A stretch of DNA of 64,000 nucleotides from Ascidiella aspersa (lineage: Eukaryota). How positions within the stretch are numbered: the stretch's first letter is position 1; each line of letters opens with the position of its first letter. The stretch lies in the NCBI GenBank assembly GCA_963924565.1, contig OZ004608.1:32674001-32738000 (forward strand), in the 5' to 3' direction. Positions 16,534-60,100 of the stretch are shown here, one piece after another. Below the pieces are notes generated by a model that saw only the letters and a program-made list of their open reading frames with translations, made no database searches and was not told the DNA's origin. Made by a program: the position numbers and the translations under genes.

Positions 16534-16579
16534 GTAAGCATGGGGGTTTTGAATATGTCCGAATCGCTATTGGTGATGG

Positions 16580-23468: not shown

Positions 23469-23490
23469 GTAAGAGAGGCAGTGTTGAAAC

Positions 23491-24159: not shown

Positions 24160-24353
24160 CTGGACCGAAGCTTCAGCAGAGGTCATCGCCGCACCTTCGC
24201 GCCACCCATGGAAGTCGAACCCACCTATAAGATGGCGCCTGACGAGAAACCGAGCTTGGACAAATGTCGACGCGTCGTCGACGATTATCTGCGACGCAAG
24301 CTCTGTGACGTCAAGTACGATGACGTCATCCAGTCTGCGTCCACGCTGTCCAG
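24160..24353 (+). CDS. Tctex-1-family dynein light chain, coding exon 4 (start of the Tctex-1 domain)
   Basis: Acceptor ATCCACAG; LDRSFSRGHRRTFAPPMEVEPTYKMAPDEKPSLDKCRRVVDDYLRRKLCDVKYDDVIQSASTLS; EPTYKMAP matches the ENTYxLxP motif of Tctex1-domain proteins; donor AG|GTAGGC, phase 2. Confidence 0.9.
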
Positions 24354-24882
24354 GTAGGCGACGTCATGAGACACACTATTAGGTTGAACAGTTCACGATA
24401 GAAGTTAAGTTAGGCGACTGCTAGCTTGGTGTCTTTACTAACCAGAAATTTTATTTTTTATTGATTTTTATTTTAAGTTTACTCCAAGATTAAGCAAAGG
24501 ACATGGGACAATTCTCCAGCATGCTGTCTTGTAGCTAAATAGAATTTAAATGTTTTTAGTATTACTATAATTTGTTTGTTTGTTTTGAGAAATCTATTCA
24601 AAACATTTTTGTTTGCCGTGTTTTGGGGATAAATCTGGACCAATGCAATTGTCAAACGAGTGAAATATTAAGATAGGAAACTGCACGGTACCGAATCGAA
24701 CCATGATAAATTAGGTAAAGACCAGTGAAAAAGTCATTCCCAGTTGGTGACAAGGTACATAATAGACTACGTCTTTCAACAGAAATGCCATTACAGTATT
24801 TCAAGGCCATGATAATTAAAACAAAACATCTCTATATTTAAAAAAATGTCTTCTGATGAAAAAAAAAATTCTCTAAATCCAG

Positions 24883-25102
24883 GAAAATCGCTGACGAGGT
24901 GAAAGAAGAAGTCAAGAGCACGGTTCTTACCCAACGCTACCGCTGCGTAGTCTACGTCACTTTGGGCCAGAAGATGGACCAGGGGGTGCAGGTGGCCAGC
25001 CTCTGCGCCTGGGACCCCAAGAGCGACAGCTACGTTTCGTGCAAGTACGAAAATGGCTCCATGTACTGCATTGTTACCGTTTTTGCCGTCTATCTGGAAT
25101 GA
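24883..25102 (+). CDS. Tctex-1-family dynein light chain, last coding exon (TCTEX1D1/DYNLT5-like group)
   Basis: KIADEVKEEVK...RYRCVVYVTLGQKMDQGVQVASLCAWDPKSDSYVSCKYENGSMYCIVTVFAVYLE*, the characteristic Tctex-1 C-terminal half (RYK, GQ, S.C.WD...D, V.AVY.E). Total spliced CDS 951 nt. Confidence 0.93.
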
Positions 25103-31876: not shown

Positions 31877-31882
31877 TTTATT
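31877..31882 (-). terminator. Candidate polyadenylation signal of the latrophilin-like gene
   Basis: AATAAA on the minus strand about 760 nt after the stop, following a U-rich 3' UTR, with a GU-rich GTGTGTTG tract downstream. Confidence 0.4.
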
Positions 31883-32638
31883 AATATATATCGAGAGAGA
31901 GAGAAAGTTGGAGAAGAAAGAGAGAAAACAAAACGTTCCGCATGACCGCCTTAGGAACGCAAAGGCTTCTTTCGCACGGGGGAATACCCACCGGGGGTCC
32001 GGGGAAGTGCATGGGTACAGTGCCAAAAAAAGTGGGTGAAAAACGCAACAATACGGCGGGGCGCGCGAGTTGGATAAACGAACATCGGACAAGCACTAAC
32101 ACAAACGCAAAAAATAGGAATAAAAAAACAAACTCGGATGATGGAGTTGTATTTATGACGGGGAATTCCTCCGAAAGCGTAGATAACGACAAACACAAAA
32201 AATATTTCAAAAAAACGCATTTTTTGTGTTTTCACCCAGGCATTCGTGGGTCGCAGTGAAGTTGCTTTGTATAATATGCAATAGTGCTGACTGTAGCATA
32301 AAAAAGAACAAGCAAAAACAAGAGAAAAGACTAAAACAGCGGGACGAGACAGCAAACGCAAAAAAAATGGAACATAAAGCAAAAAAAAAAAAAACTAAAC
32401 AGAAAGCATGCTCTATCGAGAAAGCGTCGCCGACTAAAACGTAAACAGTTTAACAAGCAGGCGTCCATAAATAGCTCAAGCGCACAAAATAAACAAAAAC
32501 AATATCTAACTGATTATGCTAAAAGAAAAACGGAAATAGGGAGTTGTCAAACGCAAATCTGTCAAACAGACGCAAAAAAACTACGCGGAAAATAATGCAA
32601 TAGTCGATTTTTTAGGGGTACTTAGGGGGGGGGGGGCA

Positions 32639-34209
32639 TTATAGGCACGTCATCATGCGGGCGGACCCAGCTGAGTTCCTTCCCGCGTCCGGGTCGTTGT
32701 CGCCATGGTGATGCGACTGGGATAGCAACGACGACGCGTTGCTAGGCGAGTGGTGATCGCTGTAGCGATTTTCCGACCGCTCTGCTGCGTCGGGATAGCG
32801 CCTGTCGGTTGTGTCGGGCTCGTCGGCCGGGTGCTTGATGATCATGTCCTCGTAGACACGCTCCTTATTCCTGGCCGGGTTTCTAGACGCCTTAAAGGCC
32901 ATTGGAGGAGAGAGAACATAGCGAGGCTGCTGTTGCTGAGGCTTGTCAGTCTGTCGGGCTGCCGGCCTCTTTTGTCTGTACGTATCGTCATCACCACTTG
33001 GAAGTTCGCCGCTGCAGCCGCTCGAAGGTGAGCTGTAGTTGTGGTTGCTCGGGCTTCCTGAGAGCTCGTTCATGCTCTGGTAGAAGGCAGAGTCGCGCTG
33101 GTTGTCCAGGAGGCCCTTCTTGGCGCGCGAGATGCCGTCTTCTTCATTGTTCTCGCTCGGATCGGCCAGAGTTAGCCTCTGAACCTCGAGATCGGTTTCA
33201 TCTCTGTGGCTGTGGGTGTGGTATAAGGGGGTCCACGGCTCCCGGTGTCGCTCCTGTTGGACATCCGAACCTCCGCGCTCCTGTCCTTCATGGATGATGC
33301 TCTCGGACATCATGGAGGAGCGCGTCATGGCTCCTCGGCTCAGGGAAGCAGGATTCCCGCAGGAGGATCCGGCGCTACTGCTCGCGCTAAAATCGTTCAC
33401 AATTGGGTCATCCGAGTCCGAGCTGTTCAAGGACCGTCTTCTCCTGCTCCCGTTGCCATGGATACGGGAGGCGTGGAGCGGCTCAAGGGAGGGACGTTCC
33501 TGCTGCTGGCGGTAGTGCCCCGGATGCGGAGGCGGCTCTGGTGGTCCGTAGCAAGCGTCGCGGCAGCGCTCTTGCGGTGCGTGTTGGGGACAGGGCTGAG
33601 CTGGATGCGAGAATCTTCTAGAAGGGGAGGAGGGTCTTCTGTCTTCCCATTGGCGAGCAGGTTGCTGTGCCAACGTGCTGGAGCGCTGGAACTGAGCGGC
33701 GTGTCTTTCTTCCCCATCAACGACGTGCTTGCCTTGGTGGTGATGCGACGACTTTAGGGGGTTCATGGTCATGGAGCGGGGTTGGGGTCGCGGGGGGTTA
33801 TTCGTGGGGTTAGGGCGGGGGTAGTGGCCGGTGTGGTGCCGGTGGGTGCACTCGGCGTCGGGGGAGTGGTACAGCTGGACGCAGTCGCGACTACAGGCCT
33901 CTGTCATGTGGCAGTGGCGTTGAAGACGGTCGTACTCGAACTCCTCTTCGCCGATCAATTCGGGCGGAAATTCGCGAGCTTTGGCCGGGAGGAAAACTTC
34001 ATCTTCATGGCCTTCCGGAGCCGCGTGATCCTGTTGTTGGGAGGTGGGGGACGGGATCAGCTTCTTTTGCTCCGGGTCGAGGAGCCGCTCGGCGCTGGCC
34101 CGCCGCAGTTGCTGGGGTGACGAAGAAGAGGGAAATTGCTGAGTTGCGCTATGACGTTGCTGGCCAAGGGCGCGGTTCATTTGCTGCTGTGGCTGCTGCT
34201 GTTGTTGTT
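32639..34209 (-). CDS. ADGRL: Latrophilin-like adhesion GPCR, terminal exon: long low-complexity cytoplasmic tail ending in PDZ-binding motif (MMTCL*)
   Basis: Acceptor CTTCTCTCCCGCTTTACAG, phase 1; ~523-codon GC-rich open frame; RDSAFYQSM and terminal xxTxL recall latrophilin RDSLYTSM...LVTSL. Confidence 0.85.
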
Positions 34210-34795
34210 CTGTAAAGCGGGAGAGAAGATTTAGAATTTTCCAGAAGCGTAAAAGGGGAATTTGAAGCACTGTCTTTTGGATGGATTGAACAAAAGGGTG
34301 GAATTCATAAAAGGTTGCGTTGTTCAACATGCAGACAAAATTGGTGGGTTATAAACTGCTAGGGTTTAGTTAGGAATGTAGCACGTCAATTGCACTGGGG
34401 CCACAAATAAATGTTGCTTGGTTTCTTTGAAAACATCATGTCTCAAGCATATGTTGATGACAGTTTGAATGTGAATGCATGGTTTCTGGCATGAAATGCT
34501 GGTGATGTTAGTAGTAAAATGTGGCTGCAAAAACTTGCATGACAAATGACGCCGATGATGATAACATGCCTAAATATGGTTGCAATGAAGGTAGTTGACA
34601 ATCAAAAACAGGGCACATGCCGCTTTCTGAGGACAGCAAACGTTTTATCGATCCACGCGAATACGCAAGTGGGTTTTCTCGACAAATCTTTTCAACGTCC
34701 AAAAACGTTACGTTACACGTTACGACGTTAACCACAGAGCGTACCAAAAAACGACCATTCCATAGCTGTACGACACAGTTAACGTGCGCACGTAC

Positions 34796-34993
34796 CAACG
34801 CGACTCTTTACCGCCAGCGTGCGGGCGCGGCTCGGGCTGGCGGAGGCCGAGCGAGCGCCGCTAGGTGGCGAAGGCGATTCGTTGAGCGGGTAGAAATAGA
34901 GAATGGACGAGGATGTGGTGCCGAAGCCGCGACTTCGGAGAGTGGCGCATCGCATGCGAGGATTGGTTAGCAAGCGCTGGGCGCATTTGGACG
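34796..34993 (-). CDS. ADGRL: Latrophilin-like GPCR, symmetric (phase 1-1) 198-nt cassette exon
   Basis: Acceptor CCACCTTTCAG, donor G|GTACGT; open frame SKCAQRLLTNPRMR...ESPSPPS...; LLTNP recalls the latrophilin-1/2 tail motif. Confidence 0.65.
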
Positions 34994-35480
34994 CTGAAAG
35001 GTGGTGGAATATTTGACAAGGGATGCTTTTTAACTTGCGATAATTGTTCGATAAAAAGGAGGCCTATTTTCGGGGAAAGATGGGCTTTGTATCGTTGATT
35101 GGGGATTTAAAGGATACTGGGGACAAATAAATCTTATTAGCAGCAGGGTGTCGTTTAGCGACTAAATAATGAATTCTGTATATAAAACTTGTGCTATTTT
35201 GAAAATAAAGTATTGTATTTTGCTGGTGAGAGGTGTATATTTAGCGCGTGGATTTAGTGAGTAAAAGATACGTTCTATTTTGTGGATTATGCGGGCTACC
35301 TTCATGTAGTAAACTAATGTAATTTCAAGTTTTACCATTTTACAAAAAAAGGCGACAATGCGCAAAAAACAAAACTGACTGGGTTAGTATCAATGTGGAA
35401 CAATTAGCTTGCAACAAACGACTAAAACTTTGTCCTAATTGTCTTCCACGGAGGTAAACAGCTTTTTCCTGACAAGCGGC

Positions 35481-35571
35481 ATGAGCCATGATCCGTGAGC
35501 GGTTAATGAGTGACAAATAGTGTGAGTGGGCGTCATATGATGGCCGTGGGTGCGTGAGCGCGTGGTGGTGG
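35481..35571 (-). promoter_or_regulatory. Intronic YCAY cluster (Nova-type splicing element)
   Basis: 14 YCAY tetramers in 91 nt, starting just after the GTAAGT donor at 35578 on the pre-mRNA strand. Confidence 0.65.
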
Positions 35572-35578
35572 CACTTAC

Positions 35579-35687
35579 GCAAGGCTCTGGGCGGTTAAGT
35601 ACACTGTGACGTCACAAGAGGCTCAGTAGACGTCATCGACGCGCGGCGTTTTGCTTCCGGTGCTGACGGTGCTCGAGTCACACCATT
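35579..35687 (-). CDS. ADGRL: Latrophilin-like GPCR, 109-nt alternative exon with in-frame stop (NGVTRAPSAPEAKRRASMTSTEPLVTSQCT*)
   Basis: Acceptor CTCACTTCAG, donor GC|GTAAGT; GC-rich; length converts phase 0 to phase 1, but TAA lies at 35597-35595. Confidence 0.55.
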
Positions 35688-38141
35688 CTGAAGTGAGTCG
35701 GGCGAGTTACTATTGGGTTTTTGTGTGGAAAGCAAAGCGAGCGTGTGCTATATGGATATGGGGCAGTATATAGTGTATATAGGCAAGTCACAAAAGGCAA
35801 GACTTCCGTAAGTTGATTTTGCTTGTATTTAACACGGACTTATAGGTACGCTATCCTAGAACGGTCAAGTCAATAAAGAACAGTATTTCTTTTGGTTAAA
35901 GGGCTTATTCTCATGTTTTAATCGCAAACTTCGGCAAAACACCCATACCAATATTATGACATTAAAACTGCCCTAGCATCGGACGTGTAGCGATACTACT
36001 AATTGGCATAGGTCTATTTCTCATGCCACCTTGACGCGAAAACTTGACGGACAAATTCGCCATTTTTGCTTAAATGGAACCACTAAGGTTTTTTTTTATA
36101 AAACTCTAGATTTACACGGAAAACCTCGCTGTACCAGATAAAGTTGCTTGTCAATGATTTGACATTTTGTCATTATTCTAACGACGGTAGATTATCATTT
36201 GCCTTACAAATCGAATTTTCGGAATTGGAAAAATCGATTTCGAGTTGGCAAGTTGCACTACTATAAATCGATAAAATTGATATTCGGGCAGGAATAAATT
36301 GAATTCGAGATTTTCAACTTTGAAAATCGCAAAGAAACGTTCGCAATACTTTTAGCAATAGATGGGAAGTTTTGTCACACAATTGCTTGCGCCTAACTAT
36401 CTCTTTTGGCGGAGTGAGTTTCTAATTTGTTGTAAGTGCAAGATTTTAGCAAGCATTCGATTTTGGACATGTTTGTCAAACGTTAGTTTAGAGAAATTCA
36501 AGCTTTGTTTAGAGAAATTCAAGCATTTCAAAGTAAAGACCTCGATAGAATCAAACAATGCATTAAATCACATCCGCGTATGTGTAAACAACATCTCAAG
36601 CAGCAAGGCTATAACACCCACCTCGGTTCGGCATAGTGTTGAGATCTTGGGAGTGGGTAATCCCCGAATCAGAAGTCCTAGGGCCGTTTACCACAGTTTC
36701 TGTCCACATGCGGCGCAGCTGAGACTAAAAACGAAAAATAAAGTTGTAAGCTATACGGTAAGCAAATATAAATAGAAAGGTATATGCACTACTTTTAAAA
36801 AGAATGCATCCCAACAAAAATATGGTGAATCAATTGTAAACATGTAATGAAATCTGTAAAGTTAGGAAATTGTTTAAATTTTGATCAAAATAATGGTAGT
36901 TTCTTACACAGAATAAGAAAAAGCCCTAAAAAATTAAGCAACTGACCTTTGGCTGACCCGGTTTAGAGCAATAAATTTCACGGTGACTACCCGGTTTAGT
37001 AACATTATCCAACGGGTAAAAATAGCACAACTATTCTTTGAGTAAATGTAATTTGTCCAAAACCATAGAAACCAGTCGCTTGTCTGAGCGCATTGACAAA
37101 TAGACAAAGACAAAATCGATTCACTCGATTTAGAGACGATTTTCCGTTTCTGTATCGCCAGTGACAAGCAACGCTGGCCAATAGAATAGACTGAGTCAGT
37201 CCGCGGGATAGATTTATCATGGTTCATAAATTGCCAATAACCGGATTAGCTGCCAAGATTTAAGAGAGCCGAGCGACGCTTGCGACTCGCGATTTTGGAG
37301 TGTGTTTGATCGCTAAGTTGATTTATATCGGAGTAGTGGCGCGGGGCGGGCAAGCGCGCACAAAATTACGAGGTTTTAATCTCTCAATGTGGACACAAGC
37401 CGGTTGCATAACCACTTGCGGCAACAGATTTGTGCTGGACTTTTGAAACGAATCAAAACGCGCCGGGCTGAGACTGTACGTAAGTAATTCAACTTTAGAG
37501 ATTGCACATTTTTATACATTTATAAATAGAACGTGTGAGCGTTCACTGGATCCTTTTCATTTGATTTGCTCCTATTTAAAATGCACCTATTGTAAACCAT
37601 ATCACTGATTTATTCCAGATCAAGTTTTGGCTTCCGGGTAAGAATCAGTATGAGAATGAGTATTAATGGTGAAAATAACGGCCCAAATAGACATAAAAAG
37701 CGACATGCTTTATTATTCAAACATTTCGGCAAATGCTCATGAATCAGTATGAGAATGAGTCTTATATTTTTTTATCTTGGATCGCTATTTTTTTCTATGT
37801 TCGTAATACATTTAGGTTAAAGTATTTTTTCCTTCAACCCTTCAGTCACTTAATACTTGGTATCCGCTGAGCAATAACGTTATACTTTTCTTGCAACTTT
37901 TAGAACTTCTACCAGCCCTTTGATGGAAACAGAGTACTAATTACCGTTAAATCAATTTGCCTCAGTAAACTTTCATAAGGCATGTATTATTTTCAAGCTA
38001 GCAATAGGATAACAGGGAGAGTAATTCAAAATTTTCCTCAAGTGTTTTCATTCCGATTTCAATCCCTTCTTGCCCCCAAAACAGTTCGACACTGAATCAA
38101 AACTTCCAGGCAAGCCCCAAATGTTATTATTTGACACTTAC

Positions 38142-38315
38142 GTTGGCAGTGGGGGTGGTTAGGGTGGTGCTGTGGGTGGTGGCGGCGGTTGGGGCGCTGT
38201 ACCTTCCCGGGGTGTACTGCTTACTGAACGACATCGAGTTGCTGACGTAGGATTCCTGGCCGCGCTTTCGACAGCAAGTTGAGCGACTGAAACATCGGCT
38301 GTATTCGGTCCGAAC
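38142..38315 (-). CDS. ADGRL: Latrophilin-like GPCR, helix 8 / proximal tail exon
   Basis: VRTEYSRCFSRSTCC...YTPGRYSA... matches latrophilin VRKEYGKCLR..CC..RTPGRYS; acceptor ACCCAG, donor AAC|GTAAGT. Confidence 0.88.
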
Positions 38316-38360
38316 CTGGGTCGGAAATATAGAGGGGTTAGTGATTGTTAAAATGAAAAA

Positions 38361-38780
38361 GGGTCGTGTTGGCTTAAACTCGGGTCAGTGCTGAATAAAG
38401 AAAACTCGATTTTTGGACTGAAATTCAATCATGTATATTTTTTTACATGTCTCTTGAAAAATTAGGAATTACTACATTTAAGAGCCCGCATGTTGTCTTA
38501 CTTCTTCTGTACGCAACAAACAGAATATTAAGCATTGATTGGCGCGCCACAAATACATCCAATTTTACGAGTTTTTTTTTCCTGTTTAAAACATCTATTT
38601 GAAACATCCATAAGGGTCGCGTTGGCTTAAACTCGGGTTAGTGCTGAATAAAGAAACTGGACGTTTTGACTTAAATTCAATCATATATTTATTTTTTGAG
38701 ACGTATTTAGAAAAATCGGAATACCTATATTTAAAAGGATGTGTGTTGTTTTAGTTTCAAAATATATCCATTTTACGGGT
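38361..38780. repeat. Local tandem duplication (~253 bp period)
   Basis: GGGTCG(T/C)GTTGGCTTAAACTCGGGT(C/T)AGTGCTGAATAAAGAAA at 38361 and 38614, with continuing similarity. Confidence 0.75.
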
Positions 38781-41700: not shown

Positions 41701-42101
41701 CTGTGCGGTTTTGGTAATCAAGACATTGCAGTAACTGATTAAAGTTCACTTTTATTTTATAAATTAAAAATAAATTTTATAAATTAAAAAGAAGATCAGA
41801 CTGTAGTGACTGATTAAAGTTTACTTTTTTTTTTAAAGATTTAGCAATCCTGATAGGGTATAAACGAACTATTTACTGCATTTACTATATTTTAATGATA
41901 TGAAGACCATTTTTTGTTATTAATTATTTTCAGGCATTTTCAATTTTCGACTGCAAATTGCTTGCAACTTCGCGAGAGAAGTGAATGCAACGTTTCAACA
42001 AAAAAATTGGCCCAAAATAAACCTTCTAGGCGCATTTCATCATAGCTCCCCAATTAGACTTAAAAACAATTCTCTCGAGCGCCCACGCGCGGCCGACTCA
42101 C

Positions 42102-42270
42102 CTTCTTCTGGAGGAGACAGTGGAAGACGAAGATGCAAAGTCCTTGGAAAGCGTTGAAGATGCAGAAGAGGTAGGCCATCACCGGCGCCTGCTCCCACAC
42201 CCAGAGGATGCCGAACGCCCATGTGATTCCGAGAAGACACAGGAGGACCGAGGCTCCTCGAACTGATGCT
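42102..42270 (-). CDS. ADGRL: Latrophilin-like GPCR, TM6-TM7 exon
   Basis: [56 protein letters not shown]; acceptor CTTCAG, donor AAG|GTGAGT. Confidence 0.95.
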
Positions 42271-42933
42271 CTGAAGATTGAAAGAAGGAGGGGTTTGATA
42301 AGTTGCTTAGCAACGCAGAGAAAATTTGAAAATATTTTATTTAGTAATGTTTTTCCAAGAATGTAGTTTACTAAATTGAAAACAGGCTTTTCGGAACTTC
42401 ATTTTTAGGAGAAGGTTTGGTAAGTCGATTTAGAACCTGAAGCTAACTTAGCAAAACTTTATTTTTATTTTTTGTTGGAAACAAATCTAAAGGCTTACTA
42501 TAATAATTGGCAGTAGACTTTAAGGATTTAGTGACATTTTGCTCGGAATAATTGCTATTGAAGAGCAGAGCCTAAACCTAACTTTAATATGTCTTTGCCA
42601 AACACAAATAGGAAACTACATGTTTTTAGTTCATGTAAACACTGATATAAAATATACTTTTGTTTTTAAATACTCAAATGTTTTTAAAACACTGAGACAG
42701 TTTCAGTTTTTTTTAAATACTAAAAAATACATGTTTATTTAACCAGGGAAAAACATATGTTTTCGAAATAGCAATAGTATGTTATTTTATCTTTTTTTCA
42801 GTTGTTCTTAGCACAAATTACAACTCAAGCAGGCTAATTTTACTGAGTCAAACATCACATCTTTTAGCACTCATAAAACATAAGTCCTTTTCAATTCCAA
42901 ATTTCCACTCAACAAAAAAGACAGTAGACTTAC

Positions 42934-43156
42934 TTGATCGCATTCACTTTGGACGAGTCGGTGTACGCCAGGGTGTGGCGGTACATCTTGAATACGGTGA
43001 TGGCTAGAAAGACTAGGTTGCAGAGGATAACGGCACACACTGGACCCACGAAGCTCCAGATAAAGCCGGAGTCCACTTTGAGCCAACAGGCGTCCGGCCC
43101 GCCGTACCCTGAGCTGTCCACCACAGCTGAGACGCCAACTATAACGGCTGGGATGC
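42934..43156 (-). CDS. ADGRL: Latrophilin-like GPCR, TM4-TM5 exon
   Basis: GIPAVIVGVSAVVDSSGYGGPDACWLKVDSGFIWSFVGPVCAVILCNLVFLAITVFKMYRH; CWL and FIWSF.GP hallmarks; phases 1 to 2. Confidence 0.95.
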
Positions 43157-43211
43157 CTGGAAGAAAAATCGATAAACAACAATTATGGACTGTATAGTAA
43201 ATGCAAGACAC

Positions 43212-43520
43212 TAGTGTTGAAGTGCCCGTCAAGTCATTTGAAAAATAAAATAGATGTAAGTACTTACAAAAAATAACAAGCCATATCCAAAATCATTATT
43301 GGACCAAGTCAACTTCAAATCAAGTATTTGCATAAAAACAAAACGTTAAACTATTAAAATTGGTAAAAACTAATTCCTGCGTGGGCAATATAACAACAGA
43401 AATTAACAAAAACGCAGTTTGTAGCAAATTGTTTTACGTGCAAAATTGAGATAAATAACTTCAACCCAAAGGTAATAAATGAAAACACTTCCCCGAGTTA
43501 GTTGACACTATGACTCAAGT
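43212..43520. mobile_element. AAGTC-repeat MITE, degenerate copy
   Basis: TAGTGTTG..GTCAAGTCATTTG..CAAGTCAACTTCAAATCAAG, colinear with 25373-25833. Confidence 0.55.
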
Positions 43521-45864
43521 ATGATGAATGCAAAAGTGTAGCTACAATTAGTTAAAAGCTTATCTTTTTTTCCAAACGAGTAGGACCAGAAAAATTTGCT
43601 TTTGCGCTTCATATTTGTCACATTATTTTATTCTCACTTTACGCCGTTTTATTTAAACGCCTTTCATTTTCCGCTGGTTAATTTAGAGAGCCTTTAAATA
43701 TTTAGGCAGGACGCAGCCCAAGCAGCATAAATAAGCGAGTTTCAAACACCAGCAAATGTGCAGTGTTACTGGCTTTCGTCCAAGTGTAGGTGACAAATAC
43801 AGTGCACGAAAAAGTCACAGGGTTAACTCGAAAAGGTGGCGAACCGGCAAAGGTTAACGACCAGCCAAGGGTCGGCCTTTTAAAGGGAAATTCACACAAA
43901 CTAGGAAACAAAGCTATGGAAAGGCAATCTCCGACTTGCGGTTAGAACGGAATCCCTCAATAATTAATGTTCAAACCACGTATGCTCGTTTTAGAGAAAG
44001 CTGAATGTAAGCAGTTGTAGCGTAAAGTTTTGGTGGCTTGGCATAAATCCGGTGGCTTTGGCATAAACATGATATTGCCAATATCGCTATGAGATTCAAA
44101 TCAAGATAACCCGATATCTATGTGGCCGCCCTAATGCACATAACTAGCAACCCAGATACGGATAGGATCTTTGTCGTTTTTAGCTTGTTTACGCGGTCGC
44201 TGATTTTTTATCAACGTTTATGTCTTTCATTTCCCTCAGTATAGGAAAGGAAAATCTATAATACGTTTAAAATAACCTTGTTGTGAAGCTGACTCTCAAA
44301 TAGGGTACAAAAATACCCATCTAATTTTAAGAGGGCATTGCACATATTAGGGCTTGAAAAGGAAAGTGTTATATCTATAGCCTAAACGCCATAAAAATCG
44401 CCTTTAAAACAGTGACAAACTTTTACAAGGCTTAAAAAAATGAGCCTGCTTTTTGAAGGGGTCACTTAAATTGCATAGCAGGTTAGAAAGAGCGCAAAAA
44501 GCACGTTTTAGGAAAAGCAAGCCGACTTTTTGTCGAGCGTAATTGTAAACTTAATACCAAATCAATAAATGGGCTGCAGAAAAGTAGGTAAAAAACGGCG
44601 CATTTCCGAGCGGCCGCATATAGACTTCGTGATTGTGGCTGTGGCTATAACTGGCTGAAGCTTCACGTCCGCTGTCTCGTCGCAACATACCGCTACACGC
44701 CGCGCGAAATCGGATTAGTCCGCTTTTCCCGACTCCAGACAGTAAACCGCGTCGCGTGAAAAGCGATTTCCCCTCCGAATACCCCCTCTGAATTTGGCCT
44801 TAACCGAAGTTTCGCGTTGTCACTTAAGCCCGGGTTGGTTATTTGTTGTTTGGTTTTTTTGCAAGGTTCGGTGCACTTTCTAGCGAATTGGACGCCTTTC
44901 GGAAGCGCCAGTCGCGAATTCGCTTTTAATAGAATCGCCCTTTTTTCGTGAAAACTCGCGAAATGTATCGGCTGCGCTTTGGCGTATGGGGAATGTCGGA
45001 TTGTATCTGGAATACAATTAAGGAAAGTAAAATGGTTGGGCAAGGGAACTTTATTTCCCTATAAGAAACATATAGCATTAAACATTTTTACGATTTGCGG
45101 ACTCTTGAATTTAATTGCTTTTTTGACACTACTGGTCATTATACTTTTAATACTTTTGAGAAAAAAATCGTATTTTGTATTTCACTTTTATGTAATATAA
45201 TACATATCGGTCGGTTTTCAGTCAATTCGAAAGATAAAGTTTTCCAAAATAGTAAATTTCCTATCGATCCGATATAACGAGACACGAGAGAACAAATATG
45301 TTCCGTCGCCATGGATTAGGGCCATTATATGAAAAACGAGGACAAAGTTTCGTTAAGGGTTACAGAAAACTATGAACTAGAAAACGAATCGAATCAGTTG
45401 TTGCTAATCGGCTGAAAACTTCGCACCCCCTCCCAGGCTTCTTGCAACTGCTTTTTTACCTGCCATGAAAAAAAATGGCACCTGCGCGAGATTGGTGGAT
45501 CGAAGAAAGTGCCAAGGGGCAATTTCGCGCGATATTCCATAGTTCACAGCGTCATTTTTCGCCACAACAAAGCTACTTCTGCAAAGCCAACAGCTGTCCG
45601 TTGCCCGCACGCCTTTATCAAATCTGTCAATCAGACGGGTTAACGATTCGAATCGGCGTTGTGTAATAGACGCGGCGCCAGCGACCGTGGTGCATGTAAA
45701 AGGCAGGCGAAGGCGTTCTTAAAAGTGCGCCGAGGCAGGGAAATTGATTTTGCATGTTTTCGCCGCTGATCCGTACAGGGAAGGCAACGGGTTGCCAGTC
45801 ACCGCGCGAGTTTGAGTTTGCAGGGGTCTGCGATTAGTCACTGGAGTTAAAAGGCAAAACATTT

Positions 45865-46075
45865 TTAAGAGAGTAAAGGAAGAGATTGAAAGAGAAAACG
45901 ACAGAGGGGAAGAGAGAGATCAAAGAAAGGGAAAACGACGAGAAAGAGAGAAATCGGAAAAAAGGTAAGAAAAGAGAGAGACCGAGAGAATCAGGGATAA
46001 GAAAGAAAAAGGGAGATTAAAAGAAAGAAAAAGAAGGAAACAATGGAAAAAAGAGTGGAAAAATGAGAGAGAAGC
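45865..46075. repeat. Polypurine (GA-rich) low-complexity tract
   Basis: About 210 nt almost entirely A/G on the plus strand. Confidence 0.8.
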
Positions 46076-46756
46076 CATTGCAAGATAGTGAAACTATACA
46101 AAGCCCAGCCTTTCGCTGATTGGGCTCCGAAATTCCGAAATTGCATTAATGTAGCGACAGGCGCATGACGGGACTGGGACAAGTCACGTAACTTGTGTCA
46201 TGTATGGGATCGCTTCTCGTTGGCATTGAACGCGGTGGCAATTTTGCTCTTTTTTCGAGCGCTGTTTTTTTGTTCGACGCGACATTTACCTCTACCGCCA
46301 ATCGATGATATGACATTTAGAGGGACAAGCATAATCCGGTGATTTTGCTGGTTCAAAGTCAAACTTTGACAGACCGGCTGTCAGGCGGTTTGACTCAAAA
46401 ATAGAAAGCCCATATTACATACCGAATACCTACGAGAGGAAACACATTGACAGGTCCCATTAAAAGTTTTTCATCTGCTGGGTTTAAATACTTTTGACTA
46501 TATATATTAATATTTAAGTATATAAATAATGGGTTCAACTTTCCCCAAAGTGATGTCAAGGCTGCTCTGTTATTAAGCTATCTTTTTATGGACAACATAA
46601 AAACACATTTACAAGTCGTCAGCGCAAATTACGCTCCCCATTTGTCCTGTCCTTTTAAAACTTAAAGTAAAAGCTTAGTGAGTTCTACATGAGCGCCAAA
46701 GCAAACGCATTCAAAAGCAATGGCTTAAAAAAAAGAAAAAAACAACAATGGCCTAC

Positions 46757-47010
46757 CGTAGCCGGTGAAATAGTACCACTTCCAGCGAGATCGACCCTCA
46801 AAGACCTCGACCAGCATGACGTAGAGCTGGAATCCCTCTAGCGCCATCCACATGAAAGCGGCCAAAAAGCTGTAGTGCAGGATACCAGCAATGACGGCGC
46901 ACGGAATCCGATGAGCGGTCTGTTTGATTCCGACCAGAAACACGAGCTCGGCGACGAAGAGACTCAGGCAGAGGTGCTTGTGTATTGTGTTGCGGTCGCT
47001 TTGGAGGTTT
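46757..47010 (-). CDS. ADGRL: Latrophilin-like GPCR, ICL1-TM2-TM3-ICL2 exon
   Basis: [28 protein letters not shown]...[28 protein letters not shown]; [10 protein letters not shown] and LVEVFE are latrophilin hallmarks. Confidence 0.96.
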
Positions 47011-50000
47011 CTGTTGATCAAGGAACAATGTTACTTCTGTTTTTTTAGTAGAAATGCAACACAAATCGGCAAATGTTAGGCTGTAATTCAGGTTGTCTTC
47101 TTTAGCTGTGTTAGTACATATAGGAGGGTCGATAAAATATACTACTTTTTAATAAAACTGAGGATTGTGCGCTTTCATGGTGTTATAAAATAGTGAATAA
47201 AAAACTAAGCAGTTTTAAGATTTTAGTTTTTTGATATTTATTTTCAAAGACATCTAATTTTTTCGATATTATAAGACACAAAACTCAGTTTGTGAAATTA
47301 TTAAACATAACACCAGTCCAATGAAACTTACAAAAATGAAGAATAATGTTTAAATCTCCAGCTATGCCATTTGCAAGGTTATTATCCTTCGTTGAAATGT
47401 GCACCTTGAGCTAAAACATTATCTACTATGGTGGCTACCATCCTATCTTTCTTAGTTGCACGAACAAACACCTTTAAGTTATCCGGAAAACCTTCATGTT
47501 TTACTCGCGAAAAATATCGTGCAGTAATTTCCATGATGTGCGCTATCAGTTGGTGTCAATCAGCATAGAAAAAGCCTATACAAGTCCGTTGAGCTAATAA
47601 AGACTCGCGTATACAAAGACGCACGGCCGACGATCAAAACCAGTCGATTCTTCACGGGGTCTTAGCGTTCGCATTGCCCTAAGCCTGCTGGTAAGCGCAA
47701 AACGGCCAACTTAAAGCACATCGAGGTTGGTAATATGCTCGTGGGGCCTATTTCTGGCGCTAGTCCCATAGATCGAAGGGATAACGGATTTCTTAGACAG
47801 TGCGTTATGCCAGATTAACCCGTCGCTTTACGATCAAATCGTGAGACATATGCACTTAAATAGGCCGTGGCGGCTAGAGCTGTAGGATCAAGTACGAATT
47901 GGGGAAGCAGGATATTTTGAATTCCGTGCCACTAATAGGGGCGTTTTGTATCCGAGTAAATTGAAACGCGCTTGTAAAGAGTTCGCCAGCATTGGCGATT
48001 AGTATAAAAGAAACATCTATAAATTGCTCAGGTGTTGCAGCAAATGAAGGCATAAAATTTGATGATTGAATATTGTTGTCACTTTTATTCTCGATCAAAG
48101 AATCAGAATGTTGCCAAAAAATGATTATTCGGCTAAAATAAATCAACATGAATACACTTTAAGTCACTTAGGCCGAAATACGAGTAAAATCATCCCATTA
48201 TCAACATCCAAATAATCTTTTAGTCAGAATATCACCCTCCTTTATGTTAAAATTTAGCACCGAATGCGCCTCCAGCGGACACAAAACAAGAATTATCAAC
48301 TAAAAAAGCATGTAGCCGTACGTTTTACCGCCCGAAAGCGAAACATAAGTTGAAAAGCGGTGCCAGTGAATCGCAACGGGTCTGATTTTGCCTGGCGATC
48401 CTGACGTCAGAACCCGAGCCAATGTCAATCGTGGGTGAAAATCCAAAAACACGGGTCTGCGATAAGGTTATTCGAACTCGCCATTTCGCAAAACCGAGGT
48501 TATTCATTTCGAGAACGCACTACACATGTTGTAAGGGTTGGAGCCTGAACTTCAATTCGAAAGAAAAACAGAGAGAACGAAAATCGATGATGTGAGCGCG
48601 CCCCGACATGACAAGTCAATTGAGGCCAAATCTACTTTCGCAGTGACGTTTGTGAAAGCAAACTGCCGCAAACTTCGCTGTTCTGACAGAGGATTTCCTT
48701 GTGTTCTTGTCGTTTGCGTGCAGTAGCAGTAGCAGCCCTGTGCATTTTTAATGCGACAGGCAAACGCGTCCGACTCTGTAATTGATTAATTCGCAGTTCT
48801 GTCTGCCCGGAATGGGACGAAATCGGGCGAAACTCCGGACTGCGCTAACCATTAGCGGATTAAGTTTTTAGCCTGAGTGCGAGATGCGTATATTGAAAGG
48901 GATAGGGCTTGACAACGAAGTCATTCCGAAATGGCAATGTATTTTGCTCGCCAAAGGTCGAACGGTAACACTGCGGTTTTTCCAGTTCGGGTATTGACGA
49001 GAAAACAAGGGGGTTGTACTTGAATTTAAATACGTATAAAATTGTATATCGCTTTGAGACGACGTATCTGTCATAATCTTCGAAATAAAAGTGGATGGCC
49101 AAATGAATGACAAGAAATTTATACGGTTAAGGTTATCTTTTTTAGAGGGTCTCTCTTGCACACTAAAAAGCAGGATAATATAGATAAATGAGACATATCT
49201 CAATTTCAATCAGTTCATTACATAATTGGCTTTCTATTAATCGTTAAAATCTATCGACTAAATGTTTAACACTAACAAATGAGATATTACAATTTCAGTC
49301 ATATTGGTATGAATGTAGCCTCCTGTTGTATTTTCAACTATATCGACTACATTCTGTCACAAAAACGCGTCCAGCGCTGCCAAAGTTGCAATAAACGCGG
49401 AGATGGCGCGATAGTTCTACGTTTCAGGTGGAAAATAAAATCTTATCACGAATCGGCCACCCGCCTAATTCATATAAGACCCGGAAAAATTTGACAAGAA
49501 AAGAAAAACGCTCGAGAAAGCGCATCTGGCGAGCGCAAGGGCAAGGGTGTGTGGGATAAAAATCTGCCGTGACGGACGTGACCTTGGCTTTGACCTTTGG
49601 CGGTAACGCAGGTGCAGGGGCCCGGGGCGGAATGCCATTTGGGCCGGGGGAAAAATTACCCCCGAAAACTCAAGTCCAAGGGTGGGTGGAAGGGGTAAGA
49701 CCACGCGGTCACTCTCCGATAAACGCGTTAAACAAAATTTGGCGTTGATCTTTCAGCAAACGCTTATGGTTGTATGGTTGTATTTTAAAACATTTACGAA
49801 AGAATGCCTAAACTTATCCAAAAATTTTGCGGTGAAATTTCAATCTACAACCTTGGAAATTCCGAGGCCGGCGTACTTTAGGCTAATCTACTTATAGGCG
49901 TGGTTGTATTTAAGTGTTTAACCAGTTACGGTCAAGTCGACTATAAGTCACGGCACCTTAACTTGTCCGTTATATTTTTCACTTTAATATGTTATTAAAG

Positions 50001-51993
50001 AGTAAAGACCTAAAATTGAATGTAGGAAAAAAAACACTATACATGCCATAGTCAACAAAAATTTAAAAAAAAACTTTGGTAATTGTTTTTTTAACGGCAC
50101 TTTCAATGCACATAAGCTGGACTTAAAACAAATTCAAATACTTTTTAATAACATAGCATACATTGAAAACTTTTAAATATGTAAATCAATTGAAAAACTT
50201 TTAAATATTCAAATTCAAAGCCTTTTTTGACAACCTGCGTTAGTCCTATATAGAAAACCGAGACTTTAAAACTGCTTTCGTAACCGTCGCGAAAGCAGTC
50301 TAAAGGATACTTCCCACGGAGGCACAGGTGTACATCAACAACCCCCAAGCTTGAGTTAGTTTTCTTTACAGTTTTTACAGGCTTTTACGTCACTCAACCC
50401 CTGTTCTCGTCACGCGAACTGACAGAGTTCAAGGCGGTGAAGTCAAAACCGAGATTTCTGGTCTCGGGCCCACCCAAAACAATCCCGTTTCGGTTTGCGT
50501 TTGCGCTTCGTCAAACCATAACAGGTTTAGGCGGGGGCGAAGTAACATTGCAAGGGTGGTAAAAATGCGGTGCCACCTAAACTGAACAATGTTGAAGGAC
50601 TGGTATAGGTTTAAATTCACACAGAACACTAAACTTGAAAGTTCTGGACTAAGAAAGTCTTTAAATGCCACGTGGTTGTAAATAATACGTCTTTAGGCCA
50701 GTGATAAGCATACATGTGTAACCTGTTTCAATTACATTGTTAATATGTAGTAAAACAACCACAACAATTGTTACAGAACATACAGCTTGCTCTATCCGGA
50801 AAACACTTTAAGCGTGATTTTGCATTTTGCAGTATCACTAAATAATGGGCAAATTAAACAAAATGGGAACGACGTTTTTAGCACAAGCAGCAACTTTAAA
50901 TTCGCTGCTGATAGATTACAGGACTAATTAAGCCCTACATAATTGTATTTACTGCTAAAACTCTACGGTGCGTACGCTTGCTTGCCACCTTTTGCACATT
51001 TCACCCACACAAAATCCCCATCGAGTTTGCCAAAATGGGGTTTCTTACCCTACTCCAACCGGAAACACCACGGAAATCGACACGTGTAGCAACGCCACAA
51101 AAAAGGCGAACATTCAACCGCACAAATGTCCCAAAAGTTTGCAAGAACGCGAAAATACGTCAAAGCACTTTGACTTTCGAGGACCGAGGCCTGCGACCCT
51201 TGCTAAAACAACAGCAGTGCTTGGATCCCGGAAAAGGGGGTGACTTTTAGGGGTAACAGGGGACCCTCTTACGGGGCGAATTTCATTACCCAGCGAACGC
51301 TGCCGCGAAACTCAATATCGAACGACCTATCTGGCGATTTAAATGGGCCGTGTCGACTGTATTGACCTCGCTCTCTGTCAAAATGCTGAAGTTTGACAAT
51401 CTGTCCTGTCGCAACGGTTTGTATGTACAAGGCTAAGCCGCGCTGAAAAGTAAGGGAAGGAATAGGTCTTTATGTTGAACTAGAGAGAAATGGAAAACAC
51501 CGGTAGGTAAAAGTGACAACATCCGTCTTAACCTATCGCCTGTAACAACAACCCGAATGCTTAGAAGTGGACAAATATGATGTGTAGGAGTTTCATCAGT
51601 CAGCGTTAGAAACCACCCGCCGAACGGAATTTGAACCCCAACTCTGCCTTGTATTTATAAACTACATGTCATCATAATAAACCACAAATCACATTGAAAT
51701 GCCAAGCCCAAAACATTTCCACTAAAGGTTTTTTACTAAACATATTGGAACACACAAAAGTATATCCTAGAGGTCATCCTTATGGTAAACAGTAACAAAC
51801 GTAAACAATATAGTTCAAATCTCGTCTAAAAAGTGCTTGTATCTTAAAAACTGCTAAAAAAATATTTATCTAAATCACAATATATACACCATAATTAAAC
51901 TTTAGGCGTTTTTTCGAAAAATATCGCGAAACACCACTTGTGGTTTACGCACTACCAAAAAAAGTAGAAAAAACAACACAAAACCCAACAAAC

Positions 51994-52224
51994 CTGAAGT
52001 AGGCGAAGGTGATCATGCAGATGACCAGGCAGACCAGCGAAATGCAGATGCCCACGCTGGTTATGATGTCCAGGGCCAGCTCGTTGACCGGTCCGGACAC
52101 CTGGACGCCGGCAACGTTGACCAGGACGGCGAAACTGGTCAGGTGGTCGCACGAGCACTCGGTGTGAGTCCGGTTGGACACCGTCACGTGACAGCCGTCC
52201 GAGTTCCAGCTGCCTTGGCGTTCG
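51994..52224 (-). CDS. ADGRL: Latrophilin-like GPCR, GPS motif and TM1 exon
   Basis: GSWNSDGCHVTVSNRTHTECSCDHL|TSFAVLVNV...ELALDIITSVGICISLVCLVICMITFAYFR; intact autoproteolysis consensus HL|T. Confidence 0.96.
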
Positions 52225-53078
52225 CTGTTGGGGGAAAATAGGTTTGAATATTTTTTGCTTTAAATTTTCACTAGTTTTAAGTTCAAAAATGTTTTTCGGG
52301 GTTGATAGCTTTTAATGTTTCCTGTTTATGAGTTGGAAGGAAGGTGTGATGTTATTCGCTTTAAATCTTGGTTGATTTTAAGTTAAGTAGGATTTCTGGG
52401 TGACTGCTAGGATTTTTTACATGTGTTTTTTAAACAATAGTTTTTTGGTTTACCGCATTGTATTTCGATTTAATTAAGACAGAAACAAGATGTGAGGTTA
52501 AAAGCTTTAAAATTATATTTTGTGAGTTAGAAGTATAAGATTAGTGGAGCTTTGAGTTAGAAGTATGGTTTTGTTGGGCAATAAGTATGATTTGGCACAG
52601 TTACAAACTATATACTTTTTGAATATACTGTTGCTGACAGGCATTATATCAATTTTAAAGAGGGTTCTTCTGACAAATATATATATTTATTAAAATTACA
52701 ATATATAACTACAACTTTAAGTTTGCTTGGGTGCAAATGCTAAACAACATGTAAAATCGGCAGTTCAACAAGGATAGTGTGTAATAACATTAAAAATAAA
52801 CACCTCTACGTTTTCCAGAAAGAGCAAACTTATTTCCCTTATTTTAAGTTTTACTTGGGCAAGCTGGTTAATACGTGAGTTTTAGCAAGAAACCACCATG
52901 TCATCAATTATTGATACAAGTGTCTACAGTATTACATCATCGAAATAACTAAAACGATAAGAATCGTCCCGGTGTTAAGGCCCTAATGCGCTGCCAGTTG
53001 TGATTTTATTTTTGTGCTGATTTTATTTTGATCTTAAAGTCTTTTTAAAAACAAGACAAAAATTTCAGGCAAACTTAC

Positions 53079-56100: not shown

Positions 56101-56946
56101 GGTCGACTATACTATAATAGCGGAGTGGAAGGCGCATTACTCGCCCCGACCGTAATTACGACGTACGAGCGCGGTAAAGCCTAGTCGAGTGGACGCAAGC
56201 TACCGGCCATCCATTATTCATTGCGCGTACATCGCCCAGTGCTACACTGTGTTGTTGGCCGGAGCGCAGGGGAAACGTAAAACATTGCCTCGTGTTTTGG
56301 CGGTAAACAACGCGCCCGAGATATTTTCTTGTGTTGCCAGCAGTCGCCCTTCAAGCGGCGTCTAAGGAGGCGACTCGTTAGGCTTTCTTTTAAGTCGCAG
56401 TGTCGGCATTCGTCTTGCGTACTTCGACGAGCCAGATTAAAACCGGTGAATTCTCCCGCTGAAATTTAGCTTGGTGTGCGATTTCGTGTGTTCGGCCCCA
56501 TATAGTTTATAAACACTGTGGAGGTTTATAAGGCGCACAGCTTGCGTGTCCATTACACAGAACGGCTTCCGAGTTTACCCATTTGATTTTAAATTATGGA
56601 ATACCTTTAACGCCAAACAACATTCTCGGATTCAAAACATCGAATGTCGTTGCTATTACTAATAAAACATCTCGAACAGCGTTTCCCATATAAACAAATA
56701 GTAGAAGTTTCGAGCAATATTGTCAATACAAATATTAACATATCACAACAATATCAACTTAAGAAATAAAAAGTAACGTGTTCTTAGATCGTTTAAGCGT
56801 ATGCTTGACGGCTGAGCCAATTGATGAGTGGTCGCATATCCCAATGGGCGTAAGTTCGAATCCCGGGAAAGCACCTAGTTTTTATCACTTAATTCTGCAG
56901 GTCAGGGGGTTAAATTTAGATCCCCACAAACACAACTCGGACCCAC

Positions 56947-57164
56947 CTGTTTGTTTTCGAGCAGGATTCGAACCGGGGTCGTCAGAAAAACGCGGTTGCC
57001 AGGGCGACCGAGTGACGCCGAAATAATCCGTGAATTTACTTTCCACTGCTCCGATGCTGCAACGTCAGAGGCGGAAGAGGTTGTGGCGAAGGCGCCATCT
57101 TGAAGCTGGGCGTCTGCGAATTCGCCTAGGTTATTGAAGACGGCGAAGACAGCCTTGCTCACAC
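56947..57164 (-). CDS. ADGRL: Latrophilin-like GPCR, GAIN domain exon
   Basis: GVSKAVFAVFNNLGEF...KVNSRIISASLGRPGNRVFLTTPVRILLENKQ; the VNS.IISAS...VFL..PV GAIN motif. Confidence 0.92.
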
Positions 57165-60100
57165 CTGTCGAAAGAAGACAAGTGCTGGTTAAGAAGATAT
57201 TGGGGTTCAACTAACATTGCTATAGTGTTCAACTAAATATGGCTAGAGTAAGATATAGGGATTTCGCATTTATGGCCATAGCAAGATATTGGGGATAGCT
57301 AGAGAGAGATATTAGGGTTCAACAAGTATGGCCATAACGTCTCAATCTAGTGTAAGCAAATGGTGGCGTAGGGGTTACAATTAGATCTGGATTAAACATC
57401 GCTTTGGGGATTATTTGGTTTAGGAAAGTGGTTCTCAACCACTTTTACCAGACAGAAAGGTGCATTTTTTACTTATGGGCATACAAACAGATAGTAACAC
57501 TGTATTGCCGAAACAATCAACACAACATTGTCAAACTACTGCTTTATAGAGTGATTACCAACGTTACGATACCCTGTTTTAGGGGTTTACAAACATCCAA
57601 TAAATGTTGTAATTTAATAGTCGCCCAAAACAATTTACAAAATAAAACGGTCCGTTACTGAATAGGGTATACTGGTTAAAAAGTTTGTCGGGTATAGGAT
57701 TAGTGGGTTATATTTAGGGGATTAGGGTTAGGCTTTGCTTACCCCGAAAGCACAAAAATGTTGGCAAGGGATCTGGGTAATTATTGCCCCCCCCCCCCCC
57801 GTATAAAATGCAGAAAAAGCATGTTCGACAAAAAAAGTCAAAGGTAGCGTTTTTATGAAGTTCAGGCTTTAATACAAGATTACAAAGAGTGTTGATAAAG
57901 ATTTCGACTAATAGATTGGATAGCGCACACGAGCCCAATGGTCACATTCAGTTAGGATATTATTTTTCCTTTAGCTAGGATATCACTTTAGGATGGCACA
58001 ATTGCCTATCTACCGCAAGTACATCCTTTCCGAAGCGTTCTGAAGCTTGTTTTAGGCGATGTGCGTGTTTATCCGAAAGTGCTCGTTTCCGTTACGTTGT
58101 AAAAAGTCCGCTCGACTGAGCATGACACAAGACGAAATGCCCTTGTTTAGTTAACCATCCATTTCGTTGGATACAAACAACATATAGGCTCACAACCGTT
58201 TTATAGCCATAATCCTGAGACTGATTTAGCGGTTCACTCAATTGTAGTATATGTTTTATGAATATGAAGTGCCACAGTAGTACATTGTTGAAAATAGGAG
58301 GTAAAACGTAAAAATGCGGCCCTAACACAATTAAAAAAAAGTCAAAGGCTTTTCATAGAAAATGTGTAGGTTTTTAAATACCTCAAATTTGACCATTAAA
58401 CATAGTTCAAATATATAACTCACAAACAATACAGTAGAAATGCTATGGTCAACACTTTGTCGACAGTTAAAAAAATTGTTTTACAATACCTTGAACTGCA
58501 CATAAATCAGTTCGAGACTATTCAAAGATTTTTGGAAAAAATAGGGGTTTCAAAGTCTTCGCAATGCACAATTTAAATCACAGACAGTTTAATGTTCAAA
58601 GATTTTGTGGCAACCCTGACAGTGCCAATCTGTGGTAACATTAACCCGCCGCGAAAAATAAACACAGGTATGTAAACACTCGATGGTCCCGTGGCCGTTG
58701 GTCAAAACCACCAAAGAAAACGTTTTGTTTGCCGCGGGAAAGCCACTTGAAGTCCCAAGGAAGGCAAACATATGACCGGGCTTGGTCTTAGCACTCCAAA
58801 ACACAACAAACAAGTCGTAAATCTCGCCTTAATCAAGCAAAGGCGATAGCTGCACCACGTATTTATCGTGTGACACTCCATGGCGGAATTTTGCCGACGA
58901 CCGCGCCCCTTTAGTGTACTGTAGAGTATCAATTCGCTCGGAAGAGCCTGTTTAATTAGCCAACGCGGCTATGTGTGAAATACCTGGGTCCACTCTATAC
59001 GCGTTGGGTCGCTATCGTGTGTAAATAAGACTACAGGGGGCAGGACAAAATCTCACTTCGCACATAGTGGTATGTATAGGAATGGGCGTCTTGGTTGCTG
59101 AATATGGGTTTTAAATACATTTCGAAAATACCCGGAAAACTGTAAAACTGTTGCTACCAGGCATAGTAATAACTTGATCAAAAACAGCTCCTCTGGTAGT
59201 TGTTCCAGGGAAAACTGGATATTTGTAAAAAATTCACGCAAGCAGAAATCAAAACAACAACTAACTTTCTTGTATTTGTATCATAAATAGGTTTTAATCT
59301 TATATTTACCCAGACCTAAAAAGAGTCCTTTCTTGAAAGAAACTGACCGTTCAATATAAACGCGTGAATTATGTAATCAGTAAAGTAAAACAACAAACAA
59401 GTTATTGTCTTTTTTCCTTAAGTTCTAATCTATTTTAACCAGGCCAAAAAAGGCCGTGCAATCTTAAGAGAACTGACCAGTCAACGCCATAAGGTGTAAT
59501 ATCTCGATACGTTGACTTTTTGACCGTTCTTAAGCCGAAAAGAGGCTCAATCCCGGCTTAGCTTCGAATGTGTCAAATGCCTGGAGTCGAACAACAAGCA
59601 ACGGATTGTGGTAAAACCCGCAGCTGCTGCCTGATTGTCTCAGCAGTTCGACTTTTCAGCCAAGACACGTCGCTCGCTATGTTTACTGTGCGGAGGCTAA
59701 CTGGGCGTAATTAGCGCGCGTTTCGACGTTAAGCCACTGTTAAGGCGAAAGCAGGTTTACGACGGCGGCGAAGTTAAATGAACGAGAGCTTTGTTAACTT
59801 GTTAGAAGAGCTGGCTTTATAACCTGAGCGAAAAACAATTGGCTTAACTCCTGTAGTGGACATGAGAAATGTTTTTGTGGATATCAAAAAAGTTAAACAT
59901 TTTTTTGTGGTTTATTGACGCTTCGGTCTAATAGGGTCATTTCACACTAACTATAAACAATTTAAAACGTTAAAAATGCGGCAACAACAACAACTGCATT
60001 TAAAGTCACTTCAATATGGACTAAATATAAAAAAATTAAGTACCATCTATTTATCTTTAAAATCTATAAAACAAAAAGTCCCTTTTTATCTGGTATAAAA

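Follow-up and report, generated by a model that had tools for sequence, protein, structure and literature searches.

What does a short exon with stops in all three frames do in the tail region of a tunicate latrophilin gene? The question was raised by a 109-nt exon in the Ascidiella aspersa genome, within a stretch of 64,000 nucleotides that we analyzed as a whole and refer to as the window (Table 1; all positions are those of the window unless stated otherwise). An earlier note on this DNA had taken the exon to be the only good phase bridge between the helix-8 exon and the terminal exon, and thus to gate access to the long, PDZ-type tail, as the source of a short receptor, as a poison exon or as a site of recoding, with a nonsense allele or assembly error as a further possibility. 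Our analysis points elsewhere: the exon is an optional cassette that probably gives rise to a short, PDZ-less latrophilin, with the splicing factor Nova as its likely prompter.

Table 1. Positions of the latrophilin features discussed in the text, in order along the gene (all on the minus strand).
Feature	Positions	Strand	Remarks
GAIN-region exon	56941..57165	(-)	approximate tblastn bounds; tblastn against C. savignyi latrophilin E 5e-17
GPS motif and 7TM start	51993..52253	(-)	approximate bounds; Pfam GPS E 1e-14, 7tm_2; tblastn
Three 7TM exons	42099..47012	(-)	about 47012-46743, 43157-42933 and 42272-42099; tblastn
Helix-8 / juxtamembrane exon	38142..38315	(-)	174 nt, phase 0 to 0; donor used in joint 36724-38142
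Stop-free RRMW exon	36622..36724	(-)	103 nt, phase 0 to 1; joined to 38142, 35687 and 34209
Alternative cassette exon	35579..35687	(-)	109 nt; CAG acceptor, GTAAGT donor; entered in phase 1; frameshifting, stop-containing
TGA, in-frame stop of the short isoform	35623..35625	(-)	ends 44 nt short of the last exon junction
TAA flagged earlier	35595..35597	(-)	within the short isoform's 3' UTR, out of the used frame
YCAY cluster, predicted Nova intronic splicing enhancer	35479..35578	(-)	14 motifs (35571-35484); adjoins the donor of the 109-nt exon
In-frame cassette	34796..34993	(-)	198 nt, phase 1 to 1
Terminal exon, coding part	32639..34209	(-)	1,571 nt, open when entered in phase 1; long tail, end MMTCL
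AATAAA, likely poly(A) signal	31877..31882	(-)	motif

The latrophilin gene and the exon that bridges helix 8 to the long tail

Protein and Pfam searches identify the gene on the minus strand of the window as a latrophilin (ADGRL), an adhesion GPCR. The top matches of one 7TM exon are ADGRL-like proteins of Ciona savignyi (90%), Clavelina lepadiformis (88%) and Styela clava (72%), and the three 7TM exons listed in Table 1 are 84-95% identical to the C. savignyi latrophilin (7tm_2 E 1.5e-24 for the first of them). The GAIN-region exon, being a fragment, falls below the curated Pfam cut-off (E 0.0014). Upstream of the window lie exons for the rhamnose-binding SUEL lectin domain (PF02140, E 8e-11, over the cut-off, and 2e-4) and for olfactomedin (PF02191, E 5e-16 and 3e-7), so that the gene has SUEL lectin, olfactomedin, GAIN with GPS, and a secretin-type 7TM region whose nearest relatives are latrophilins. 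The HRM domain (PF02793) is absent from the domain listings of the four tunicate matches (Ciona, Clavelina and two from Styela).

Within the 308-Mb genome the helix-8 exon is matched once, which indicates a single-copy latrophilin. A wider scan with the same exon gave nothing in 600 prokaryote and 91 viral contig stretches; at least two of 598 metagenome stretches matched (46% over 37 residues), and these were dropped on finding no tblastn match to the three tunicate latrophilins. On the opposite strand the window also holds a gene with a Tctex-1 domain, of the dynein light chain type (24860-25096, plus strand; PF03645, E 8.5e-22); additional open frames accompany it at about 23255-23497 and 24116-24379. 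Two coding-looking frames on the minus strand, 16289-16582 and 1096-1362, have no Pfam match at E 0.01 and are probably exons of other genes.

The terminal exon is 38% identical to residues 1193-1581 of the Clavelina latrophilin, a protein that ends RMMTCL; the MMTCL end we take to be a putative class I PDZ-binding-type motif, following the S/T-x-hydrophobic pattern. The 198-nt cassette upstream of it is homologous to the optional insert of both Styela paralogues (none of 300 shuffles reaches the score), with a TSSxxLYFY-type stretch in common. No joint to this cassette occurs among the four read runs mapped over 32400-38399; judged by its homology, it is a conserved tunicate alternative exon.

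As had been noted before, the helix-8 exon exits in phase 0, and the 198-nt cassette and the terminal exon are open in phase 1; our translations agree. Between 38141 and 34212 there are 40 open AG..GT candidates, and seven of these, 36724-36622 among them, are stop-free and run from phase 0 to phase 1. This 103-nt exon is 76% identical to residues 1067-1100 of the C. savignyi latrophilin (tblastn, E 8e-12), its peptide, compared with 94 distinct tails drawn from 141 proteins, outscores every one of 60 shuffles in 54 of them, and its R[RK]MW motif is present in 95 of 120 homologues. By these comparisons it is conserved from Ciona to mammals, and it is likely constitutive and equivalent to E27 of mouse Lphn3. 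Another stop-free phase 0-to-1 exon between 35.0 and 38.1 kb, the finding against which the earlier note had staked its model, thus exists, is conserved and takes part in RNA splicing; the 109-nt exon is not the only good bridge, and its length, once described as exactly right for bridging, is a one-in-three coincidence. An AG at 36718, six bases inside the 103-nt exon, could be an in-frame alternative acceptor; the joints observed use 36724.

An include-or-skip cassette and its reading frame

Four read runs, X1 to X4, were mapped over this region. X1 and X2 have coverage in every bin and no spliced joint, and so behave as DNA; X3, of unrecorded kind, contains spliced contigs and behaves as RNA; X4 is a raw RNA run, of which about 6% was read, with 100 reads on the region. 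Eight joints were listed: four are splices, and the other four are genomic indel or repeat variants. The helix-8 exon is joined to the 103-nt exon (36724-38142; two reads in X4, depth 14.9 in X3). From there, the 103-nt exon is spliced either directly to the terminal exon (34209-36622; X3 contigs only, depth 12.3) or to the 109-nt exon (35687-36622; two reads in X4, depth 5.5 in X3), which is in turn joined to the terminal exon (34207/9-35579; X3 contigs only, depth 7.7). The last of these is listed as 34207-35579, with two letters differing at the joint, and we read it as use of the 34209 acceptor. Support is slender: X4 has two raw reads for each joint seen there, contig depth is a poor measure of level, and contigs cannot place the two include joints, each seen singly, in one molecule. 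A joint from the helix-8 exon straight to the 109-nt exon (35687-38142) is not among the eight, although absence in contigs is not proof.

The 109-nt exon is therefore a genuine include-or-skip cassette, with both of its junctions, 35687 and 35579, present as spliced joints; its CAG and GTAAGT flanks stand in the sequence as previously described. The exonic half of its donor (TGC/GTAAGT) is weak. We considered an origin as a retrocopy or repeat and rejected it, since the four splice joints are missing from the DNA-like runs X1 and X2 and the exon has one match in its own genome. Retention or slow splicing contributes around the exon: X3 carries intronic sequence at depth 6-8 there, and X4 has intronic coverage too.

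Several further features of the mapped region are recorded here. One X3 contig spans the intron 36621-35688 (minus strand) at depth 6.5, with X4 reads inside it; reading past the donor of the 103-nt exon meets a TGA after eight codons (by eye), so that retention would give a third short tail. Within the 109-nt exon, a substitution at 35649 (Thr to Ser in the used frame, by eye) is present in four of four X4 reads and in X1, and not in X2 or X3. The intronic segment 37661-37768 is a very high-copy short repeat (bin depth 85,000-146,000 in X1 and X2), and one X1 contig lacks it (the joint skips 106 bases), so it is a polymorphic insertion. At the far end, X3 contig 15 runs 530 letters below 32401, to about 31871 if colinear.

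Because it is preceded by the 103-nt exon, the 109-nt exon is entered in phase 1 and translation stops at the TGA at 35625-35623. When the exon is skipped, the tail counted from the start of the helix-8 exon is 615 residues long and ends MMTCL; when it is included, the tail has 113 residues and ends RVDDVY. At the level of the reading frame, then, inclusion removes the long tail together with its PDZ-type end. The exon is no gate, since the 103-nt exon joins the terminal exon directly. Of the switch proposed in the earlier note, the choice between a short tail and a long PDZ-type tail holds, with both include and skip joints in hand and truncation on inclusion; the gating mechanism does not.

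The TAA at 35597-35595 does lie in the phase-0 frame, and the other two frames are indeed closed, as stops were found in all three. A short receptor ending ...EPLVTSQCT at that TAA would nevertheless require a frame that no observed joint uses. Readthrough or A-to-I editing of the TAA has lost its purpose as well: the codon is out of the used frame, and recoding cannot restore the MMTCL end because the 109-nt exon, read past the TGA, exits in phase 2 and the terminal exon has to be entered in phase 1. Nothing observed calls for a nonsense allele or assembly error at the TAA. Contigs of X1 and X2 cover the TAA as well as the TGA, with no difference at either among the rows listed (there were 150 further rows); X4 depth is zero in the bin 35400-35599, which contains the TAA.

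A candidate regulator and the fate of the short isoform

Directly after the donor of the 109-nt exon stands a cluster of 14 YCAY motifs in 100 nt. This is the maximum for the window on both strands (window mean 1.3) and was reached in none of 5000 dinucleotide shuffles; in a further 80 kb the maximum was 8 per 100 nt, making the cluster the densest in the 144 kb scanned. Among 576 equally degenerate 4-mers, YCAY is the most enriched in the cluster (10.8-fold; the next, 8.0). Two points weigh against this figure: 35 of the 576 motifs attain an equal fold at some place in the window, and the cluster was spotted post hoc. None of the window's 214 strong donor-like sites, a set without the weaker donor of the 109-nt exon, is followed by more than six YCAY in the next 100 nt. 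A tandem repeat was considered as the source of the cluster and set aside, as the cluster is not one. A second YCAY-rich patch (34600-34421, minus strand; 12 motifs over 180 nt), located after the 198-nt cassette and before the terminal exon, is weak, its density being reached in 207 of 5000 dinucleotide shuffles. TGCATG is absent from the 300 nt downstream of each of six exons.

A search of the genome placed a Nova orthologue at G000:C6:16458877-16468567, where three KH matches share one strand. The last of them best matches KH3 of Nova-1/2 (E 1e-26, versus 6e-9 to PCBP); of the four KH loci compared (among 37 matches), the other three best match PCBP. In Ciona, Nova is reported to promote inclusion of the Agrin Z exons via YCAY clusters in the downstream intron (PMC12445529), and where such a cluster lies, if no farther than 200 nt from a splice site, is reported to predict the direction of the Nova effect (PMC2014790). 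The Ascidiella locus has the arrangement expected of a Nova-enhanced exon: a YCAY cluster no more than 200 nt downstream of the 109-nt exon, and a Nova gene in the genome. Nova bound to the cluster after the donor would enhance inclusion of the exon. Because of the cluster, the Nova KH3 in the genome, the Ciona Agrin precedent and the position rule, we lean toward the prediction that inclusion is Nova-enhanced and so neuron-biased.

Latrophilins are not mentioned as mouse Nova targets in the main text of PMC2014790 or PMC3552424, nor do they occur in the small supplements of PMC4930328 and PMC10287156, whose full target tables may bear on the claim. File 5A of PMC6092797 has four rows for Lphn2 and one for Lphn3; that file contrasts motoneurons and spinal cord and does not tabulate Nova dependence. 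According to a 2019 review, no splicing factor had been identified for latrophilins (PMC6629964). In our literature search, neither the splicing of tunicate latrophilin tails nor the control of a latrophilin by Nova turned up as the subject of a paper, which is not proof of absence.

Inclusion of the exon would bring in the TGA and with it a receptor lacking the long tail and the PDZ-type end. Whether such a receptor is made depends on the fate of its mRNA. The rule for EJC-type decay, stated for mammals, sets the limit at a stop 50-55 nt upstream of the last junction (PMC11874985). The stop of the observed isoform lies 44 nt upstream, under that limit, so the mRNA is predicted to escape such decay, and we think there is a good chance that the short receptor is made. 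The distance is near the threshold, the rule is mammalian, and the length of the 3' UTR, about 2.4 kb as far as the AATAAA at 31882-31877, leaves decay possible.

The chief competitor to a short receptor is a regulated poison exon, possibly itself driven by Nova, whose inclusion would send the mRNA to NMD and so set the level of long receptor while yielding little short protein. Its appeal comes from a stop upstream of a junction followed by the long 3' UTR, from an exon peptide conserved in no tail tested, and from the reported control of cryptic NMD exons by mouse Nova (PMC3552424); if the 198-nt cassette were also included, moreover, the stop would fall 242 nt before the last junction. That cassette is joined to nothing in the reads, however, and in the isoform observed the 44 nt fall short of the 50-55 nt that a poison exon should exceed. 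The include joints in X3 (5.5 and 7.7) are comparable in magnitude to the skip joint (12.3), as far as contig depth can tell, and annotated short isoforms end at the same junction in Styela and fish. We regard a poison exon as unlikely, if still worth keeping in mind.

The exon might instead be a lineage-specific, weakly spliced element with no function, and the YCAY cluster a chance C/A-rich patch. The failure to find an orthologous peptide would fit, as would the weak donor and the nearby intronic depth in X3, which speaks of incomplete splicing. Yet the exon appears in two runs from two studies, its one genome match gives no sign of repeat origin, the cluster sits exactly at the enhancer position, and the exon's own position coincides with a known latrophilin splicing hot spot; we consider this improbable. 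The model in which the exon is the sole bridge, with its TAA read through, edited, or explained by a null allele or assembly error, draws on a length of 109 (1 mod 3) and a phase-0 frame open for 30 codons. The phase-0 peptide, with X at the stop, even scores 46 against one primate ADGRL3 tail (none of 300 shuffles), although over all 94 tails that score is reached by 2 of 60 shuffles. We take the match as chance: only two of the 94 tails beat all shuffles, and it falls in a Ser/Thr-rich low-complexity stretch some 265 residues into the tail, a non-equivalent place. With a conserved, stop-free bridge spliced directly to the terminal exon and the direct joint from helix 8 unlisted, this model is hardly credible. 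A cassette that yields a short, PDZ-less receptor is thus the reading that we carry forward.

Likeness to tail splicing in mouse Lphn3, Styela and fish, and to Agrin in Ciona

Mouse Lphn3 has variable exons E28-30 after the constitutive E27, with the PDZ motif reported on E31 only; E30b, which shifts the frame of the terminal E31, is reported in 20-25% of ribosome-bound mRNA and moves coupling from Gs to G12/13 (Wang et al., 2024, PMC10830413). In ADGRL3 the RRMW exon occupies tail positions 51-81. Since the mouse variable region begins 81 residues after TM7 (PMC10830413), where the RRMW exon ends, the Ascidiella cassette appears to occupy the same junction. Like E30b, the 109-nt exon is optional, shifts the frame and lies after the last constitutive tail exon and before the terminal one, and its inclusion costs the long tail and the PDZ-binding motif. 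The two differ in that the frame shift of E30b implies a stop in the terminal exon, whereas the 109-nt exon carries its stop inside the cassette, and we found no sequence similarity between them. Mouse E31 and E32 offer the same outcome, a long PDZ tail versus a short tail without PDZ, branching after the same exon; E32, however, is an alternative last exon, whereas the donor of the 109-nt exon is in use and joins it to a common terminal exon.

The 20-residue peptide of the 109-nt exon found no homologue among the 94 distinct tails, in protein searches or in a representative library (0 matches). Its best score against the tails was reached by 11 of 60 shuffles, and the E30b and E32 ends were not identified among those tails; tail-directed protein searches returned matches only from Clavelina, Ciona, Styela and one fish. 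The exon would, by analogy, work like mouse E30b, and orthology is not claimed. Loss of the tail may remove scaffold binding and could perhaps shift G-protein preference as E30b/E32 do in mouse Lphn3, the only system in which the G-protein and scaffold effects have been shown.

Database models from other chordates branch at the same place. The Styela clava latrophilin cluster has 11 members: four direct-long forms, three insert-long forms whose 76-residue insert is a homologue of the 198-nt cassette, and four short forms. The short forms, known from annotation, end 5-9 residues after the same exon, with a sequence unlike the RVDDVY peptide. The long tail of the Styela cluster ends QEECA, which is not a class I motif, whereas Ascidiella and Clavelina end MMTCL. 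Among the 95 RRMW-bearing proteins, 10 have fewer than 90 residues from the RRMW exon onward (three of them apparently partial models), and several fish isoforms, also database models, end shortly after that exon.

What the locus adds is a read-supported tail switch in a single-copy latrophilin of an invertebrate chordate, at the junction where mouse Lphn3 makes its scaffold and G-protein decision. If the switch there is confirmed, its site is either older than the split of tunicates and vertebrates or a place of repeated convergence. It is a speculative, and on present evidence doubtful, extension that the choice between a long PDZ tail and a short tail after the RRMW exon predates vertebrates with Nova as its regulator, acting also on E30b of mouse Lphn3, for which no splicing regulator is named in the available text of PMC10830413. 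Were the tunicate part true, neuronal Nova would turn latrophilin into a scaffold-free short form.

The closest precedent for such control is Agrin in Ciona robusta, like latrophilin a synaptic gene with a tunicate cassette exon. Its Z exons are reported to have dense YCAY in the downstream intron (18 sites, versus the 14 in 100 nt found here); they are in-frame microexons, and their Nova dependence was established by CRISPR and minigene, whereas that of the 109-nt exon is predicted (PMC12445529). The YCAY cluster thereby supplies a named candidate regulator that can be tested cheaply, Nova minigene and CRISPR assays being reported to work in tunicates (PMC12445529). The exon itself is a tail-truncating latrophilin cassette of a type known from mouse Lphn3, of which it is a further example, and it involves neither a gate nor recoding.
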